DNA of 64,000 nt. Origin: Waddlia chondrophila WSU 86-1044. Its GTDB lineage: Bacteria > Chlamydiota > Chlamydiia > Chlamydiales > CAMCWV01. Both the position numbers and the translations under genes were made by a program. The notes below the pieces were generated by a model. That model did no database searches, had not been told where the DNA came from, and worked only from the letters and a program-made list of their open reading frames with translations. How positions within the stretch are numbered: the stretch's first letter is position 1; each line of letters starts with the position of its first letter. This document shows positions 3,440 through 63,957 of the stretch, one piece after another. The stretch is taken from the NCBI GenBank assembly GCA_945882915.1, contig CAMCWV010000002.1, forward strand, positions 43,821-107,820, read 5' to 3'.

Positions 3440-4096
3440 CCCAGACCGAGACGGCCTAGTGGTCTGTCAATATTGAAATTACGGGTGTGCGGCGCGAAAG
3501 CTCCGGGGCTTTGGCCTTGTCATTACCCACATTTTTAGGCCTTTTTCTTTCTCTCACGTTCTCTCACGCCTCTGTGTTTCAAAAATCTTAATATCTGTTT
3601 TTTGAAACACAGAGGCGTGAGAGAACGTGAGAGAAAAACAAGAGAAAAGAGAAGGGGACGCGGAGTTGGTGGTTGTTTTTTAGAAAACCGCGCAAGCGTT
3701 AGTTAAGCGGCAAGGCCGTGGCAGATGTTAGCCGTAGGTGACTGAAAGGAACCTACGGAAATGCCGACAAATAAAAACCATAAGCCGCGGACAGCGGCGG
3801 CAGATAGTTTGTCGTATCGCCACTGCCGTGGCTCAGAATCTAGGGATGAAGATTCCGTAGGTTCCCTTCAGTCACCTACGGCTAACATCTGTCACGGCCT
3901 TGCCGCTTAATTGCCGCTTACGCGGCTTTCAAAAAAGTAACGCTGCCCTACGCAGGGAGCGAAAGCGTTCAGAGGGACGAGAAATAATTTGGACTTGACA
4001 ATTCACACAGCAGAGAAATGAAAAGGTCTAAAATGTGAGTAATGACAAGGGCTTTGGCGCCGTCCAAATTCCTGTTTTCAGCTAAGAGGAGTATAG
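3440..4096. repeat. composite nested repeat: R2 fragment + variant R1 left arm + R6 element (containing R3 hairpin and R7 inverted-repeat element) + R1 right arm
   Basis: 3440-3456 R2 fragment cccagaccgagacggcc. 3459-3514 variant R1 arm gtggtctgtcaatattgaaattacgggtgtgc..gcgaaagctcc. 3515-4050 R6, bounded by ccttgtcattacccacat / atgtgagtaatgacaagg. Inside R6: R3 hairpin at 3547-3645 and R7 at 3683-3930. 4051-4095 R1 right arm ending ..cagctaagaggagtata. Confidence 0.8.
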
Positions 4097-4118
4097 TCGA
4101 TTAAGGTGTAGGTGGCGT

Positions 4119-4595
4119 CTAAATGCGGTTTTTGCCGAATTCTTGAGCCTTAATAAGAACCTCGTCAAAAGTCATCTTACCAGTGGCTACTGAAGCAATT
4201 CCATCAACAAAAGTTTCAGAAACTTTTCGGAGTGTTTCTAAAAAGGCACTGATGTGGCCTGCTTCAACACGTCCCTCGTGACTTGGAATCACATAACGGA
4301 AAAAAATAAGCTCAGACGCTTCATCTAAACAAAAGCCAGGAACGTCTAATTCTCTATTCAAAAGGTGCAATAACCGAGCTACATCAGGGGCAGCTGCCTG
4401 CTTTGATTCAAAAGGGAAATAGACGAGCATGTTAAGAAGAGAGTCGCCGTTCAATGCACGAATAAAAACAGGAAAGTCTAGCTTTGAATGCTTGAAAACA
4501 AAATGTATTTGCTTATGTTCTTCCTGAAGTTCTGGTGCAAACCCCTGATCCTTCAGATAAGTAATAATCGAATTCATGTTTAGAAGAATAGACAT
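4119..4595 (-). CDS. YbjN / type III secretion chaperone-like protein (tentative)
   Basis: I prefer the internal start MSILLNMNS (ATG 4595-4593), which has AAGGA 5 nt upstream. About 158 aa, acidic, with a size and alpha/beta pattern reminiscent of the YbjN/CesT-type chaperone fold. Lies immediately downstream of csrA. The family call is from memory only. Confidence 0.4.
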   Translation of the reverse strand: MSILLNMNSIITYLKDQGFAPELQEEHKQIHFVFKHSKLDFPVFIRALNGDSLLNMLVYFPFESKQAAAPDVARLLHLLNRELDVPGFCLDEASELIFFRYVIPSHEGRVEAGHISAFLETLRKVSETFVDGIASVATGKMTFDEVLIKAQEFGKNRI

Positions 4596-4672
4596 AATTG
4601 TCCTTAAATATTTGAAGAAATAACAATAACCATAACTATACAATGGATCCAGGTATGACGCCAGTATATACT

Positions 4673-4948
4673 TTAGTCAGACTCTGTCGCAGAAGTTGCG
4701 GGGATTGCTTTGTCCATCTTAAAATTAAGTGTTTTAGCAATCGAACGGACATCATGAGAATTTTTATCTGTTGCACCGCCTGCATTAGCCTGCTCAATGG
4801 CCTTAACAAGCTCTTCGCGCAAGATGCGCGTTTCTTTGGGAGCTTCAATACCAATAGAGACCTGGTTTCCTTGGATCTCTAAAATGGTAATAACGATTTG
4901 CTTCCCAATTCTGATTTTTTGCTCAGACTTCCGTGTCAGCACCAACAT
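4673..4948 (-). CDS. csrA: carbon storage regulator CsrA (with C-terminal extension)
   Basis: Start MLVLTRKSEQKIRIGKQIVITILEIQGNQVSIGIEAPKETRILREEL matches the CsrA consensus (MLILTRR..E.I.IGD.I.ITVL...GNQVRIGI.APK...I.REE). GGAGG lies 11 nt upstream of the ATG at 4948. The longer track ORF (to 5014) is an upstream extension. Confidence 0.8.
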   Translation of the reverse strand: MLVLTRKSEQKIRIGKQIVITILEIQGNQVSIGIEAPKETRILREELVKAIEQANAGGATDKNSHDVRSIAKTLNFKMDKAIPATSATESD

Positions 4949-5020
4949 GGTATATGGCTCCTCCAATTCATTGCGAATGCCTTTCTTTCTTAATGCAAAG
5001 CATTCATTCTCCACAAGTCA

Positions 5021-5212
5021 TTAGTAACTAACGCCTGGAGTCAGGCTTTCAGCGCCATTTCCCTTAATAATATTAGGATTATTTGTCACAGGAGTTGTTT
5101 GTAAATAATCATCGGCAGGCATCTCGTATAAGCATCCAGTCGCCATGCAAAGCACCATCGCAAAACACAAAAACCTTAATAACCCCATTGAAAACCGCTT
5201 TGACAAGTACAT
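5021..5212 (-). CDS. small putative lipoprotein
   Basis: Start MYLSKRFSMGLLRFLCFAMVLCMATGC (signal peptide plus lipobox-like ATGC), with AAGGTGG upstream of the ATG at 5212. The rest of the 137-aa track ORF upstream is translation of an R1 repeat. Confidence 0.35.
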   Translation of the reverse strand: MYLSKRFSMGLLRFLCFAMVLCMATGCLYEMPADDYLQTTPVTNNPNIIKGNGAESLTPGVSY

Positions 5213-61936: not shown

Positions 61937-61945
61937 TGCCCCCGA

Positions 61946-62734
61946 ATGGCTTTGCAAGAAAACAATATAAATCACAAAAATATCAAGCTCACCATCGCCT
62001 ACGATGGGACTAACTACCTCGGGTGGCAAAAAACAATCACCGGTCCCAGTATTGAAGAGTCTCTACAAATAGTCCTTGAAAGGATTTTACAAAAAGCCGC
62101 GCCTTTGCAAGCCGCCAGCAGAACAGATGCGGGCGTTCACGCCGTAGGCCAGGTAGTCAATTTTTTTACAGAAAAAAACTCGTTAGACTTAAAAAGGCTC
62201 CGCCTCGCCTTAAACGGGCTGCTTCCCAAAGATATTGTAGTGCTCAGCGCCGAAGAAGCCCCCCATAAGTTCCACCCAACACTTGATTGCTCTGGCAAAA
62301 CCTATACTTATTTTGTCTGCACCAATGAAGTGCAATTCCCAGAGCATCGCAACTTTTCCTGGCACTGCCCACATGTTTTGAATATTGAAGCCATAAAAGA
62401 GGCCGCAACTCACCTCATAGGAACGCGCGACTTTGCAGCCCTTTGCAACGAGCTCAGCACGCGAGACTATACCCATACAATCCGAACTGTTAAAAGTATT
62501 AACATCACAATGTTCGGAAAGGGACGCCTTCGTTTTGAAATTACAGGAGACCACTTTCTTTACAAAATGGCGCGCAATATCACAGGTCTGCTAATCTATG
62601 TAGGCAACAACAAGATCGATGCCAAGCAAGTCCCAAGTATTCTACTTGGGCGGGAGCGAAAAGAAGCGGGCATCACCGCCCCGGCCCACGGCCTTGCTCT
62701 TGAACAGGTACACTACCTGCCAATTGGAGTTTAA
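61946..62734 (+). CDS. truA: tRNA pseudouridine(38-40) synthase
   Basis: 262 aa. YDGTNYLGWQ, and RTDAGVHA with the catalytic Asp. Confidence 0.9.
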   Translation: MALQENNINHKNIKLTIAYDGTNYLGWQKTITGPSIEESLQIVLERILQKAAPLQAASRTDAGVHAVGQVVNFFTEKNSLDLKRLRLALNGLLPKDIVVLSAEEAPHKFHPTLDCSGKTYTYFVCTNEVQFPEHRNFSWHCPHVLNIEAIKEAATHLIGTRDFAALCNELSTRDYTHTIRTVKSINITMFGKGRLRFEITGDHFLYKMARNITGLLIYVGNNKIDAKQVPSILLGRERKEAGITAPAHGLALEQVHYLPIGV

Positions 62735-62738
62735 ATTT

Positions 62739-63614
62739 ATGATTGCACGCAATGACCCCTGTTGGTGTGGAAGCGAAAAAAAATGGAAACAATGTCATTA
62801 CCCAACAACCAATCCTAATAACATAAAAAATGACCTTGCTGAGCGCTACCGCAAGCAATACCAAATCATCTTAAAAACTGAAGAGCAAATTGCAGGTATA
62901 CGAAGAGCGTGCAAACTTGCTGCAGAAATCTTAGATAAAACATGCGCAATGGCCCACGAAGGGGTAACGACAAATGAGCTTAATACTTTTGCTCATGACC
63001 TCCACGTAAAAGCAGGGGCTATCCCTGCGCCGCTAGGCTACGGCCACCCTCCCTTTCCAAAGAGCATTTGTACTTCGCTAAATGAAGTCATTTGTCACGG
63101 GATCCCAGACAATACACGCCTAAAAGATGGCGACATCCTAAACATTGATGTCTCAAGCATTCTTAAGGGGTATTACGGCGACTGCAGTGGAATGGTGTGT
63201 ATCGGCAAGGTTAATGAAGAGCGTCAACGTGTTGTGGATGTCTCTCGCGAGTGCTTGAACAAGGCAATCGCCATCCTAAAACCAGGCGTTTTAGTGTCTA
63301 ATATTGGAGATGCAATTGAAGCCTATGCCGCTAAACATAAATGTTCTGTTGTTCAGCAGTTCGTCGGCCACGGTGTAGGTATAGACTTTCATGAAGCCCC
63401 CCAAGTCCCTCACTGCCACAATAAAGTCAGAATTCCCCTTGTGCCAGGGATGATCTTTACAATTGAGCCCATGATCAACGCAGGCGTTCATGAAGGGATT
63501 GTCGATTCTAAAGATGGATGGACAGCTAGGACAAGAGATCTTAAAGCTAGCGGCCAGTGGGAGCACACGCTGCTTATCACAGAAACAGGCTGTGAAGTAC
63601 TCACGCAGCTTTAG
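62739..63614 (+). CDS. map: methionine aminopeptidase type I with N-terminal SEC-C zinc motif
   Basis: Start MIARNDPCWCGSEKKWKQCH (SEC-C motif), then the M24A core (VCHGIP, DCSGM, GHGVG, EPM, WEHT). The track ORF start at 62619 lies inside truA. Confidence 0.9.
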   Translation: MIARNDPCWCGSEKKWKQCHYPTTNPNNIKNDLAERYRKQYQIILKTEEQIAGIRRACKLAAEILDKTCAMAHEGVTTNELNTFAHDLHVKAGAIPAPLGYGHPPFPKSICTSLNEVICHGIPDNTRLKDGDILNIDVSSILKGYYGDCSGMVCIGKVNEERQRVVDVSRECLNKAIAILKPGVLVSNIGDAIEAYAAKHKCSVVQQFVGHGVGIDFHEAPQVPHCHNKVRIPLVPGMIFTIEPMINAGVHEGIVDSKDGWTARTRDLKASGQWEHTLLITETGCEVLTQL

Positions 63615-63654
63615 GCTGCGAGGCGGACTTTGGTTGTTCCGACGAATGAGACAA

Positions 63655-63957
63655 TTGCACTAGTCGGGAATTTAGGGGGCGAGCTAGCAAGCTCTTTGAG
63701 TCTCCTTAAAAATTAAGGAGTGCAAAATTGTCCTAAACAAACAATTGCCATTTCCAGAAGGTAACGTGGACCGTCCCAGTCTGGAATTTCAGATTGAGTC
63801 TACAACAAACATTTGCCTGGCAGGAGGTTAGATCCCAGACCTTAGGCGGTCCACGTTACCTTCTGGAGGCGGCAACCCTTTAATCGCTACGGGCTTCTTC
63901 TCTTTTTTTCTTTTGTGCGCCGTCCAAATTCCCGTTTTCAGCTAAGAGGCGTATATA
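63655..63957. repeat. composite: degenerate R1 left arm + R2-flank + complete R2 (63753-63857) + R1 right arm (63917-63957)
   Basis: gtcgggaatttagggggcgagctagcaagctc ... aaaattgtcctaaacaaacaattgccatttccagaaggtaacgtggaccgtcccagtctgg ... ccagaccttaggcggtccacgttaccttctgg ... gcgccgtccaaattcccgttttcagctaagaggcgtatata. Confidence 0.8.

Follow-up and report, generated by a model that had tools for sequence, protein, structure and literature searches.

The intergenic spacers of the 64,000-nt stretch of DNA analyzed here (referred to as the window) contain many copies of a short palindromic repeat, R1, which raises the question whether these repeats are mobile elements or inherited hairpins and whether they belong to a described family. 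The host is an uncultured, environmental, chlamydia-like lineage of the Chlamydiota. In the initial annotation, R1 had been proposed to be a non-coding, palindromic, MITE-like family without a described counterpart. We find that R1 is an undescribed family among bacterial MITEs of the Correia/RUP type, and that its copies are probably non-autonomous DNA transposons (MITEs) with near-perfect terminal inverted repeats (TIRs), which insert at TA and leave a TA on both sides.

Copy number and architecture of R1

The repeats are real: within the 64-kb window the 36-nt terminus TATATACTCCTCKTAGYTGAAAACGGGAATTTGGAC was found 20 times with at most 3 mismatches (0.00 expected, 100 shuffles) and the 23-nt core CTCCTCKTAGYTGAAAAYGGGAA 32 times (0 expected). 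As outlined in Table 1, the inventory comprises 15 two-ended elements and ~7 half copies or remnants, with a frequency of one per ~3–4 kb; one-ended copies were found at 4097, 15949 and 63957. The positions assigned by eye to the short class (5355, 11983, 30193, 43290 and 50685) and to the middle class (13182, 23473, 58735 and 60004) were reproduced. The same holds for the long class at 34775, 39300, 52773 and 54097, whereas the supposed long element at 60207 turned out to form the left portion of a larger composite (407 bp). The half copy proposed at 36474 is solid, but the sites at 47021, 53253 and 56556 hold only 10–15-nt remnants.

Measured between the flanking TA, simple copies are 66–68, 92–95 or 160 bp long; these cores are non-coding and lie under the ~200-bp limit of MITEs, and as the hairpin extends over the whole length there is no room for a gene. 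A single long hairpin underlies all three size classes, which are nested within it and have their junctions at CCCG microhomologies. The central module 'R8', which was found only within R1, had been taken for a second hairpin; instead, it coaxially extends the same stem, so that the long form folds as a single ~78-bp hairpin with 'R8' at its apex. The stems are highly stable (z = −8 to −19): the copy at 39302..39465 forms one continuous hairpin of −125.5 kcal/mol as RNA (z = −19), and the copy at 58737..58835 has a perfect 42-bp stem (−52.9 kcal/mol as DNA) with private substitutions on both arms. Private substitutions are carried by every copy.

The TIRs are near-perfect, ~25–27 bp long and read TACTCCTC(G/T)TAG(C/T)TGAAAA(C/T)GGG, with a flanking TA at 14 of 15 left ends and at all 15 right ends. 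Across 17 copies, the 25 outer pairs are 94.6% complementary, compared with 41–50% when the partner is slid, and the arms co-vary (11 double-change cells versus 4.4 ± 1.5 in shuffles). Two arm haplotypes occur, GTAGT and TTAGC, for both of which three complete copies in the window are chimeric. Furthermore, R2-type variants combine the R1 termini with a different interior. The termini are thus common to at least two interiors that are unrelated to each other, the palindromic body of R1 and that of R2, which marks the termini as the decisive part. The variant at 34630–34780 abuts the next R1 copy (34777..34940), as had been noted for 34631/34776, with a single TA common to both.

Table 1. R1 copies, composites, variants and remnants in the window
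Feature	Position	Strand	Description
Truncated composite	3487..4095	+	R1 inner module (GCGCGAAAGCTCC/GGGGCTTTGGC), ~550-bp segment bounded by CTTGTCATTACCCACAT inverted repeats and containing other hairpin families, R1 right arm ending GAGGAGTA-TA at 4097; left outer arm absent
Short class	5357..5426	.	70 bp including both flanking TA; loop type GGCGCC
Short class	11985..12056	.	72 bp including TA flanks; loop type TAGCGCG; 19 nt past stop of gene 12076-13128(-)
Middle class	13184..13281	+	98 bp; asymmetric halves L..R'; 8 nt past stop codon
Right arm only	15898..15947	-	inner side joined to CTTGTCATTACCC-bounded segment also in 3487-4095
Middle class	23475..23570	.	two R-type halves; near-perfect palindrome
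Short class	30195..30265	.	in central loop of large unrelated palindrome
R2-type variant, R1 termini	34632..34778	+	151 bp (34630-34780); non-palindromic interior
Long class	34777..34940	+	164 bp including TA flanks; L..R'
Left half copy, L type	36474..36522	+	8 nt from leuS stop codon; nhmmer E = 4.5e-12
Long class	39302..39465	+	divergent leuS/rnr spacer
Short class	43292..43361	.	end 11 nt ahead of ATG at 43373
Arm remnant, CTCGTAGCTGAAAAC	47025..47039	+	15 nt; marginal
Short class	50687..50756	.	more diverged
Long class	52775..52938	+	L..R'; left flank TG, not TA
Terminal remnant, ATATACTCCTCTT	53254..53266	+	overlaps predicted start codon of gene 52980-53255(-)
Long class	54099..54262	+	L..R'; left TA overlaps predicted sigma-factor ATG, gene 53299-54099(-)
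Remnant, TCTCGTAGCT	56554..56563	+	10 nt; just upstream of flhF start; weak
Middle class	58737..58835	.	two L-type halves
Middle class	60006..60103	+	L..R'
Composite, 407 bp	60208..60610 (60206-60612)	+	long-class R1 interrupted in right inner arm by ~230-bp unrelated insert, a CTTGTCATTACCC-bounded segment delimited by inverted repeats; insert flanks GGCTTTGGC / GGCTTTCGC
R2-type variant	63725..63955	+	right R1 arm only

Empty and filled insertion sites

Contig L027 belongs to the same organism, as it carries R1 copies and a tnpA 97% identical to positions 60837–61315 of the window. On this contig the tnpB gene of an IS605 is interrupted by a 72-nt TA…TA block, which is a short R1 copy. The corresponding empty site (…AAAAC-TA-TGTATT…) is provided by an intact IS605 copy on contig L028, whose flanks are 97.7% identical to those on L027; the empty site reads GTGCTCTAAAAC-TA-TGTATTGGCG and the filled site GTGCTCTAAAAC-TA-[TACTCC…GGAGTA]-TA-TGTATTAGCG. 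The TnpB frame of 384 aa was reopened only when R1 and one TA were removed, leaving one TA behind. The reconstructed protein aligned with ISDra2 TnpB over residues 1–379 (E = 1.9e-51), and its Pfam OrfB_IS605 domain proceeds uninterrupted across the removal junction.

A second site lies within the window, where the uninterrupted palindrome at 3730–3880 has an R1-bearing paralogue at 30090–30330. After removal of R1 and one TA from the latter, both aligned without indels, revealing the same TA duplication. Evidently, R1 is mobile: two independent sites have each gained the element together with one TA upon insertion at TA, corroborating the proposed mobile family. In formal terms, a 2-bp TA duplication is indistinguishable from a duplication-free insertion, next to a TA, of an element with its own TA. 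The sampled strains, nearly identical to each other, showed no presence/absence polymorphism of R1.

Distribution and genomic setting

R1 is not confined to the window, further copies being present on contigs L012, L022 and L027. Searches of GTDB species genomes, JGI metagenomes, viral contigs, plasmids and phages gave no match to R1. Rfam at the gathering threshold identified only tRNA-Asn and SRP RNA in the window, not R1, and a permissive Rfam scan of 34500–35100 returned only sub-threshold generic microRNA-hairpin matches. No description of R1 was found in the literature searched, and Chlamydiae are not mentioned in the MITE reviews and survey checked. The nearest relative found has no R1; its rnr-leuS spacer comprises 97 bp compared with 430 bp here.

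In the window, R1 occupies 15–16 of the 29 spacers that measure 70 bp or more, so that its earlier placement in nearly every spacer was overstated. Its occurrence irrespective of the orientation of the flanking genes was confirmed, since convergent, divergent and tandem spacers all contain copies. All copies in the window are intergenic, and the sole genic insertion seen (tnpB on L027) breaks the reading frame. Many copies are located 8–40 nt past stop codons or 10–60 nt ahead of start codons. Interspersed repeats account for ~7.5% of the window versus almost none in a relative, and several families of nested hairpin repeats crowd the spacers of this chlamydial lineage.

The asymmetric long copies are co-oriented: all 7 two-ended and all 3 one-ended copies read L-half…R'-half on the + strand, a set that includes a copy beyond the window on contig L012. 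This counts against classical cut-and-paste transposition, as a TA-duplicating inverted-repeat element is expected in either orientation. The co-orientation is confounded with the direction of transcription for 8 of 9 copies, and one partial copy on L027 has the opposite orientation relative to GC skew. We consider it unlikely that the co-orientation extends genome-wide and reflects a strand-specific insertion or survival step coupled to replication or transcription. If the bias did hold genome-wide, it would point to an unrecognised transposition mechanism or to a selected polar hairpin function in the chlamydial chromosome.

Transposase genes and alternative explanations

As stated in the initial annotation, the window contains no transposase with ends matching R1; it does, however, hold an IS200/IS605 tnpA (Y1_Tnp, 60887–61315), the sole type of transposase gene encountered, which adjoins the 407-bp composite and is frameshifted ahead of the catalytic SPSY. 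An intact 138-aa TnpA is encoded on L027. The gene belongs to an IS605 with tnpB. The ends of this IS605, CCCCGCCCTAAAGGACGGGG and CCCCTTCCTAAAGAAAGGGG, form hairpins of the CCCCGCC-CTAAAGG-ACGGGG type and bear no relation to the termini of R1. TnpA scored 107.5 bits with the IS200/IS605 profile NF033573 and 18.3 bits with the RAYT model NF047646 (cut-off 80), and shares 80–87% identity with IS200/IS605 transposases that, where a source is named, come from Proteobacteria. In the gene lists for ~100 kb of this organism we found no transposase whose ends resemble those of R1, nor did the loci examined show any IS630-type gene. A derivation of R1 from IS200/IS605 as a palindromic (PATE-like) element is contradicted by the unrelated IS605 ends and the TA duplication. 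R1 also departs from a REP/REPIN-RAYT system, whose GTAG tag is unconserved here (GTAG and TTAG are about equally frequent) and for which no RAYT-class Y1 transposase was found.

R1 might nevertheless be a REP/REPIN-like element moved as ssDNA by a Y1 (HUH) tyrosine transposase, which would be either a RAYT or the IS200/IS605 TnpA found here. The Y1 gene beside the composite, its intact copy on L027, the hairpin nature of the elements and the GTAG in the arms of about half of the copies would be in line with this, as would the co-orientation of all seven long copies, which is expected of replication-coupled ssDNA transposition. The protein, however, is by its scores a canonical IS200/IS605 TnpA, it is 80–87% identical to transposases of that type with named proteobacterial sources, its gene in the window is broken, the ends of its IS are unrelated to R1, and the tnpB of that very IS was disrupted by R1. 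Moreover, the GTAG is G/T polymorphic, HUH transposition does not leave a symmetric TA on both sides, and the co-orientation is weakened by its confounding with transcription and by the oppositely oriented partial copy, so that we regard a Y1-driven movement as highly improbable.

A further alternative is that R1 copies are not mobile but are functional hairpins passed on by vertical inheritance, having spread by duplication or gene conversion; they might then serve as terminators, as mRNA stabilisers or RNase III sites, or as protein-binding sites. Their positions near stop and start codons within co-oriented gene arrays, their very stable stems, the co-variation of their arms and the fixation of all copies across samples could be understood in this way. 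We nonetheless consider this highly improbable: the two precise TA-duplicating insertions hit an IS gene and another repeat, the nearest relative has no R1 in its orthologous spacers, no T-run follows the R1 stem, all three types of spacer are occupied alike, and the co-variation is explicable by descent from the two arm haplotypes. Finally, an assembler might have collapsed or copied repeats in this metagenome-assembled genome. In other assemblies, R1-type repeats are frequent points at which contigs end or continue into a different partner (34752, 54169, L012 versus L013), and the few differences between assemblies are confined to hairpin repeats, those on L022 all being G/T or A/C. The same copies were, however, recovered in at least six independent assemblies or read sets; together with their unique flanks they are present at 99.8–100% identity in ERZ27280192, ERZ27280263, ERZ27280265, ERZ27280278 and ERZ27280301 and likewise in Logan ERR3719153, ERR3719154 and ERR3719160. 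As each copy furthermore has its private substitutions, an artefact is exceedingly improbable.

Proposed origin and significance

R1 exhibits the features by which bacterial MITEs are recognised (PMC2229807), namely small non-coding units, TIRs, TA/TSD and many dispersed copies, as well as the 2-bp TA duplication of IS630/Tc1-mariner-derived MITEs. As a MITE, R1 would be moved in trans by a transposase making 2-bp staggered cuts at TA, most likely an IS630/Tc1-mariner-type DDE enzyme whose gene either lies in another part of the genome or has since disappeared; the attribution to IS630 is deduced solely from the TA duplication. The 160-bp form would represent the one long hairpin and the 92–95-bp and 66–68-bp forms its apical-deletion derivatives; a CCCG direct repeat marks every class junction, which is what slippage across a hairpin, or its repair, would produce. 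Any influence on the host is probably incidental: copies near stop or start codons probably form part of transcripts, in which they would make long stems of double-stranded RNA, and the outward-facing GAGGAG end can adjoin start codons. A secondary RNA-level role is possible.

The interrupted tnpB is a clean natural case of a MITE-into-IS insertion, in which R1 inactivates an RNA-guided TnpB nuclease gene, and the size classes illustrate how a long palindrome decays via defined microhomology deletions. R1-type repeats break and mis-join metagenome contigs and therefore matter for the assembly of such genomes. Altogether, R1 is unusual for its host but ordinary as an element, and leaves the knowledge of how bacterial MITEs work unchanged.

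Comparison with known systems

Bacterial MITEs are defined by a length of <200 bp, TIRs, terminal TA, TSD and a long stem-loop (Delihas 2008, PMC2229807). The likeness to the Rickettsia RPEs drawn earlier is the weaker one: these are also palindromic repeats of ~100–150 bp proliferating in an obligate intracellular bacterium, but they typically lie in-frame inside protein genes and have no consistent TA/TSD (PMC2229807, Table 1), whereas no in-frame genic copy of R1 was seen. REP/REPIN sequences share with R1 the intergenic hairpins, the inverted doublets forming long hairpins, a Y1-family gene in the genome and mosaic, BIME-like arrangements with other motifs (PMC3733652); R1 differs in its unconserved GTAG, the lack of a RAYT, a Y1 gene that R1 does not flank in the manner of a RAYT, and the TA duplication. 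Closer is RUP of Streptococcus pneumoniae (~107 bp, TIRs, TA insertion), which tends to insert into IS elements, inactivating their genes (PMC2229807), just as R1 splits the IS605 tnpB. RUP has a recognisable parent, its TIRs being similar to IS630-Spn1, whereas none was found for R1, whose stem is longer and whose sequence is different. The comparison with the Correia elements (CREE/NEMIS) of Neisseria proved apt. These occur in classes of ~107 and 155 bp differing by an internal segment, possess ~24–26-bp TIRs beginning TATA…, terminal TA and a target duplication, have no known cognate transposase, and their transcripts fold into long stem-loops (PMC2229807). Like R1, they are small, non-coding, intergenic and abundant, with TA-bearing TIRs, size classes and a stem-loop. 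In sequence and host phylum both families are unrelated, and R1 is palindromic over its full length, Correia at its ends only; R1 moreover comes in three nested classes and in composite forms.

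Copy number and anatomy of the R1 family

The palindromic, TA-flanked, MITE-like repeat R1 was confirmed at counts far above those in shuffled sequence after all sites had been read. In the window its 36-nt terminus gave 20 matches at ≤3 mismatches (0.00 expected from shuffled sequence) and its 23-nt core CTCCTCKTAGYTGAAAAYGGGAA gave 32 (0 expected). Copies were counted by reading each site individually and by a profile scan with a half-element model, which yielded 15 two-ended elements: five short (66–68 bp between the TA flanks), four middle (92–95 bp), four long (160 bp), one 151-bp variant and one 407-bp composite. 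Together with partial copies this bears out the roughly 20 full or partial copies reported by the initial annotation, although the fifth of its long copies, at 60207, is the left part of the composite; the other four are simple long forms. Mean pairwise identity within the classes is 85–93%. Self-comparison assigned 6,370 bp of the window to repeated DNA, 1,524 bp of it being a paralogous gene pair; with this pair subtracted, interspersed repeats make up ~7.5% of the window, and R1-terminated elements total ~2.9 kb. R1 occupies 15–16 of the 29 spacers that are 70 bp or longer, i.e. about half of them and not nearly every one as had been claimed.

Features of the R1 family and associated elements (window coordinates unless a contig is named; L012 and L013 are contigs from other assemblies or samples)
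Feature	Position	Strand	Score
R1 151-bp variant with different interior	34630-34780
R1 407-bp composite	60206-60612
R1 one-ended or half copies (n = 4)	3487-4097, 15949, 36474, 63957
R1 remnants of 10–15 nt (n = 3)	47025, 53254, 56554
Co-oriented asymmetric R1 copies, long and middle	13184-60610; left extension L012 13099-13198
R1 copies 8–41 nt past stop codons, co-oriented gene runs	13184, 11985, 52775, 54099
R1 copies 11–84 nt ahead of start codons	43292, 23475, 39302, 34777
R2 (R1 termini, quite different interior)	34630-34780, 63725-63957, L012 11853-12130
Segments bounded by CTTGTCATTACCCACAT inverted repeats	3505-4057, 15880-15905, 60334-60565
~390-bp element in R1 right arm, ends CCCAAGTTCAGTGCTTCGCAC…GTGCGAAGCACTGAACTTGGG, CTAA on both sides	L013 12120-12505
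IS200/IS605 tnpA, Y1 TnpA ORF	60887-61315	-	Pfam 100 bits, NCBIfam 107.5 bits
Solo copy of IS605 end hairpin	39190-39250
Inter-assembly difference sites	39413-39438, 54166-54195, 60425-60463

Alignment by the ends unveiled a consensus common to all copies, TA-TACTCCTC(G/T)TAG(C/T)TGAAAA(C/T)GGG…CCC(G/A)TTTTCA(G/A)CTA(C/A)GAGGAGTA-TA. The TA flank is present at 14/15 left and 15/15 right ends, and the base beyond it is A at 13/15 left and T at 11/15 right ends. The two copies described as directly abutting (34631/34776) indeed do so, sharing a single TA at 34780. The outer 25 pairs are 94.6% complementary (17 copies). As the long form folds into one unbroken stem of ~78 bp (RNA −125.5 kcal/mol, z = −19), its central module R8 (also C) is the apex of the same hairpin and not, as initially described, a second hairpin in the centre. 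No occurrence of R8 was found outside R1; given this absence and its coaxial stacking, insertion of a separate element R8 into R1 was rejected as the simplest reading.

Comparison of the classes indicated that each shorter one matches the longer one except for a missing apical block with CCCG direct repeats at its borders; the junctions are GCTCCCG^CGGCTGAAC…CAGCCCCG^GGGCTT (long to middle) and GCTCCCG^GGGC…TTCCCG^TTTTC or its other-strand mirror image (middle to short). Both mirror-image short forms are present, through either a recurrent deletion or later amplification of each product. Two inner half-types were distinguished, L (…AAAACGGGAATTTGGAC-TAGCGCGAAAGCTCCCG) and R (…AAAATGGGAACTTGGAC-GGCGCCAAAGCCCCG). 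Most of the long and middle copies combine L with R', while L+L' (58735) and R+R' (23473) occur once each. The arms covary (11 double-change cells vs 4.4±1.5 in shuffles); two arm haplotypes, GTAGT and TTAGC, can account for this, and three of the complete window copies are chimeric for them. Inspection of the half-element alignment gave no RNA-level strand preference for the asymmetric halves, each strand having one G·U pair and one C·A mismatch.

On the plus strand the order is L…R' in each of the seven two-ended asymmetric copies and in three one-ended ones, regardless of the flanking genes; GC skew is uniformly negative across the window. This bias is confounded by the direction of the genes: of the nine copies that follow a gene, eight have the order R…L' when read along it. 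A partial copy (4344-4452) on L027, a separate contig of the same organism, has the opposite orientation relative to GC skew. The copies are too few to decide on an orientation bias.

Empty sites and TA duplication

Empty counterparts of R1-bearing sites were identified at two independent loci. The 21.7-kb contig L027 carries an IS605 with divergent tnpA and tnpB, the latter called as two fragments with a short-class R1 between them. Among three reconstructions, only removal of R1 plus one TA opens a frame of 384 residues; residues 1–379 of this TnpB align with ISDra2 TnpB, and its OrfB_IS605 domain is unbroken across the joint. At the DNA level, an intact IS605 from another sample (L028, 1,870 bp; flanks 97.7% identical to L027) reads CTCTAAAAC-TA-TGTATT, versus CTCTAAAAC-TA-[68 bp]-TA-TGTATT in L027. 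The second site lies in an unrelated palindrome (30030-30435) whose central loop is occupied by a short R1, whereas that of its paralogue (3680-3930) is not; after R1 and one TA were taken out, the two align free of indels. Both comparisons give a TA duplication and thereby support the MITE-like reading of the initial annotation.

Candidate mobilising enzymes

No transposase with terminal inverted repeats matching the R1 ends (TACTCCTCKTAGYTGAAAAYGGG) was found in the window, as previously stated; an IS200/IS605 tnpA with unrelated ends had nevertheless been missed. This gene (60837-61315, minus strand) carries a frameshift just ahead of the catalytic SPSY motif. Once repaired, it encodes a standard TnpA of 138 aa with 80–87% identity to IS200/IS605 transposases for which the named sources are Proteobacteria; this suggests that the IS was recently acquired horizontally. 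An intact 138-aa TnpA is encoded by the IS605 (tnpA and tnpB) of the same genome at L027 1-1726, and L028 represents a separate intact copy.

A RAYT/REPIN reading was rejected: the window TnpA reached only 18 bits with the RAYT model (cut-off 80). IS605 was likewise rejected as the parent of R1: its ends are CCCC…CTAAAG…GGGG hairpins without similarity to R1, and R1 itself interrupts IS605. On these grounds the window TnpA is very probably not the mobiliser of R1. Terminal inverted repeats with a 2-bp TA duplication also fit IS630/Tc1-mariner transposases; such an enzyme we infer only, because IS5 (ISL2/IS427 group) and IS30 elements can produce 2–3-bp repeats as well. No DDE transposase gene appears in the gene lists of ~100 kb from this organism.

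R2, composites and other repeats

The R2 elements, a second lineage, have the same termini as R1 around different interiors, which points to the termini as the functional part. The CTTGTCATTACCCACAT-bounded segments occupy the identical inner-arm position of R1 at three loci, with GGCTTTGGC on both sides as an apparent 9-bp duplication; this may be a third, site-specific element or else a composite that was dispersed whole. The L012 arm matching the interrupted L013 arm is free of the ~390-bp insertion.

Further repeat families were observed in the window. A hairpin TCTCTCACGTTCTCTCACGCCTCTGTGTTTCAAAAA… and its complement lie in at least five spacers (3540-3640, represented by a shorter variant in L011, a contig from another sample; 8810-8889; 15780-15870; 22740-22830; 30410-30435). 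A large palindrome of ~250 bp, AAACCGCG(C/T)AAGCG…GCCGTAGGTGAC…, occurs at 3680-3930, 30030-30435, 15699-15760 and L011 7280-7300; L011 lacks 206 bp of the copy at 3712-3917, by either strain deletion polymorphism or assembly collapse. The hairpin GGTAACGTGGACCGCCTAAGGTCTGGGAT… (7761-7911, 46852-47001, 60378-60502, 63760-63860, 5470-5531, 3440-3460) is found alone and also inside R2-type and composite R1 elements, whose interior it forms. A perfect 72-bp palindrome with TATAG termini, TATAGTCGATTAAATCTCAAATGATAGGCTGAGAC…, which with its fragments (52089-52166, 42545-42581, 50817-50852, 4097-4110, 13176-13186) looks like a second TA-flanked MITE-like family, directly adjoins an R1 end twice. 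The small hairpin GTAACAGTTCACATGCACCGACGAAGGAGGGGTATGTGAACTGTTAC has two copies (22836-22885, 36248-36306).

Differences among assemblies over ~30 kb fall nearly all within hairpin repeats; in the right arm of the R1 copy at 39300, for example, GCC-GTCCAAG is replaced by GCTAGTCCAAA in another assembly. All differences of contig L022 are G/T or A/C changes, which resemble Illumina inverted-repeat errors and may be such; they were therefore not used as evidence of templated palindrome correction. Furthermore, contigs of other assemblies switch flanking DNA exactly within R1-type repeats (34752, 54169, L012/L013 ~12000), which could reflect recombination between copies or assembler chimeras, and the ends of short Logan contigs fall inside R1 copies.

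Host and distribution

The window (46% G+C) encodes BamA, MsbA, LeuS, RNase R, DnaN and an flhB-flhA-flhF-sigma cluster. The best LeuS relatives, of which the named ones are Parachlamydiaceae and Protochlamydia, are only 65–69% identical, so that the host is an uncultured, deep-branching member of the Chlamydiota. The flagellar-type cluster of this chlamydial genome (53299-59975, minus strand; flhB-flhA-flhF-(120 aa)-sigma factor) has R1 copies between several genes, and its FlhA scores 845 bits against an FlhA cut-off of 772 and below the SctV cut-off. Two adjacent DUF3419 paralogues (20585-21346, 21571-22332) are similar over 762 bp (tandem gene duplication).

The window DNA recurs at 99.8–100% identity in three Logan read sets and in five or more ENA assemblies belonging to a single project. 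R1 extends beyond it: a 278-bp R2-type element and a middle-class copy lie in the 8–9 kb to the left (L012), one short copy in the 2.5 kb to the right (L022) and three copies on L027. An exact 19-mer of the terminus gave only chance-level matches in GTDB (7; one genome per species) and JGI metagenomes (2), the wider motif being absent from all these loci, and 0 in viral contigs. Plasmids, phages (BLAST), Rfam and a literature search by sequence string gave no match either, in line with the earlier view that R1 is not a described family. Over 22.5 kb, the closest relative examined (LeuS 68% identical, 39% G+C) lacks R1 and is nearly free of repeats; the orthologous rnr-leuS spacer measures 97 bp there vs 430 bp in the window host. 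In other samples, whose overlapping contigs amount to ~85 kb, every R1 copy is fixed, without presence/absence polymorphism.

Position relative to genes

With copies near stop and start codons, many R1 elements would be transcribed as long perfect stems. Correia element stems are RNase III substrates, and transcribed R1 stems would, by analogy, be substrates as well. The outward-facing R1 end reads …AAGAGGAGTATA, and two minus-strand genes have a predicted ATG that coincides in part with the terminal TA of R1 (54097-54099, 53253-53255; ends at 54099 and 53255), with the GAGGAG of R1 3 nt upstream. This raises the possibility that R1 ends were co-opted as ribosome-binding contexts, unless the start codons are mis-called; given the short 3-nt spacing, co-option is no more than a lead. 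R1 is probably selfish DNA first, for which side effects on the host are plausible.

Relation to known elements

The data support R1 as a new family of MITEs, a kind of element that is well known, though the phylum is unusual. Symmetric terminal inverted repeats together with a 2-bp TA duplication, both seen in R1, characterise bacterial MITEs of the Correia and RUP types (PMC2229807).
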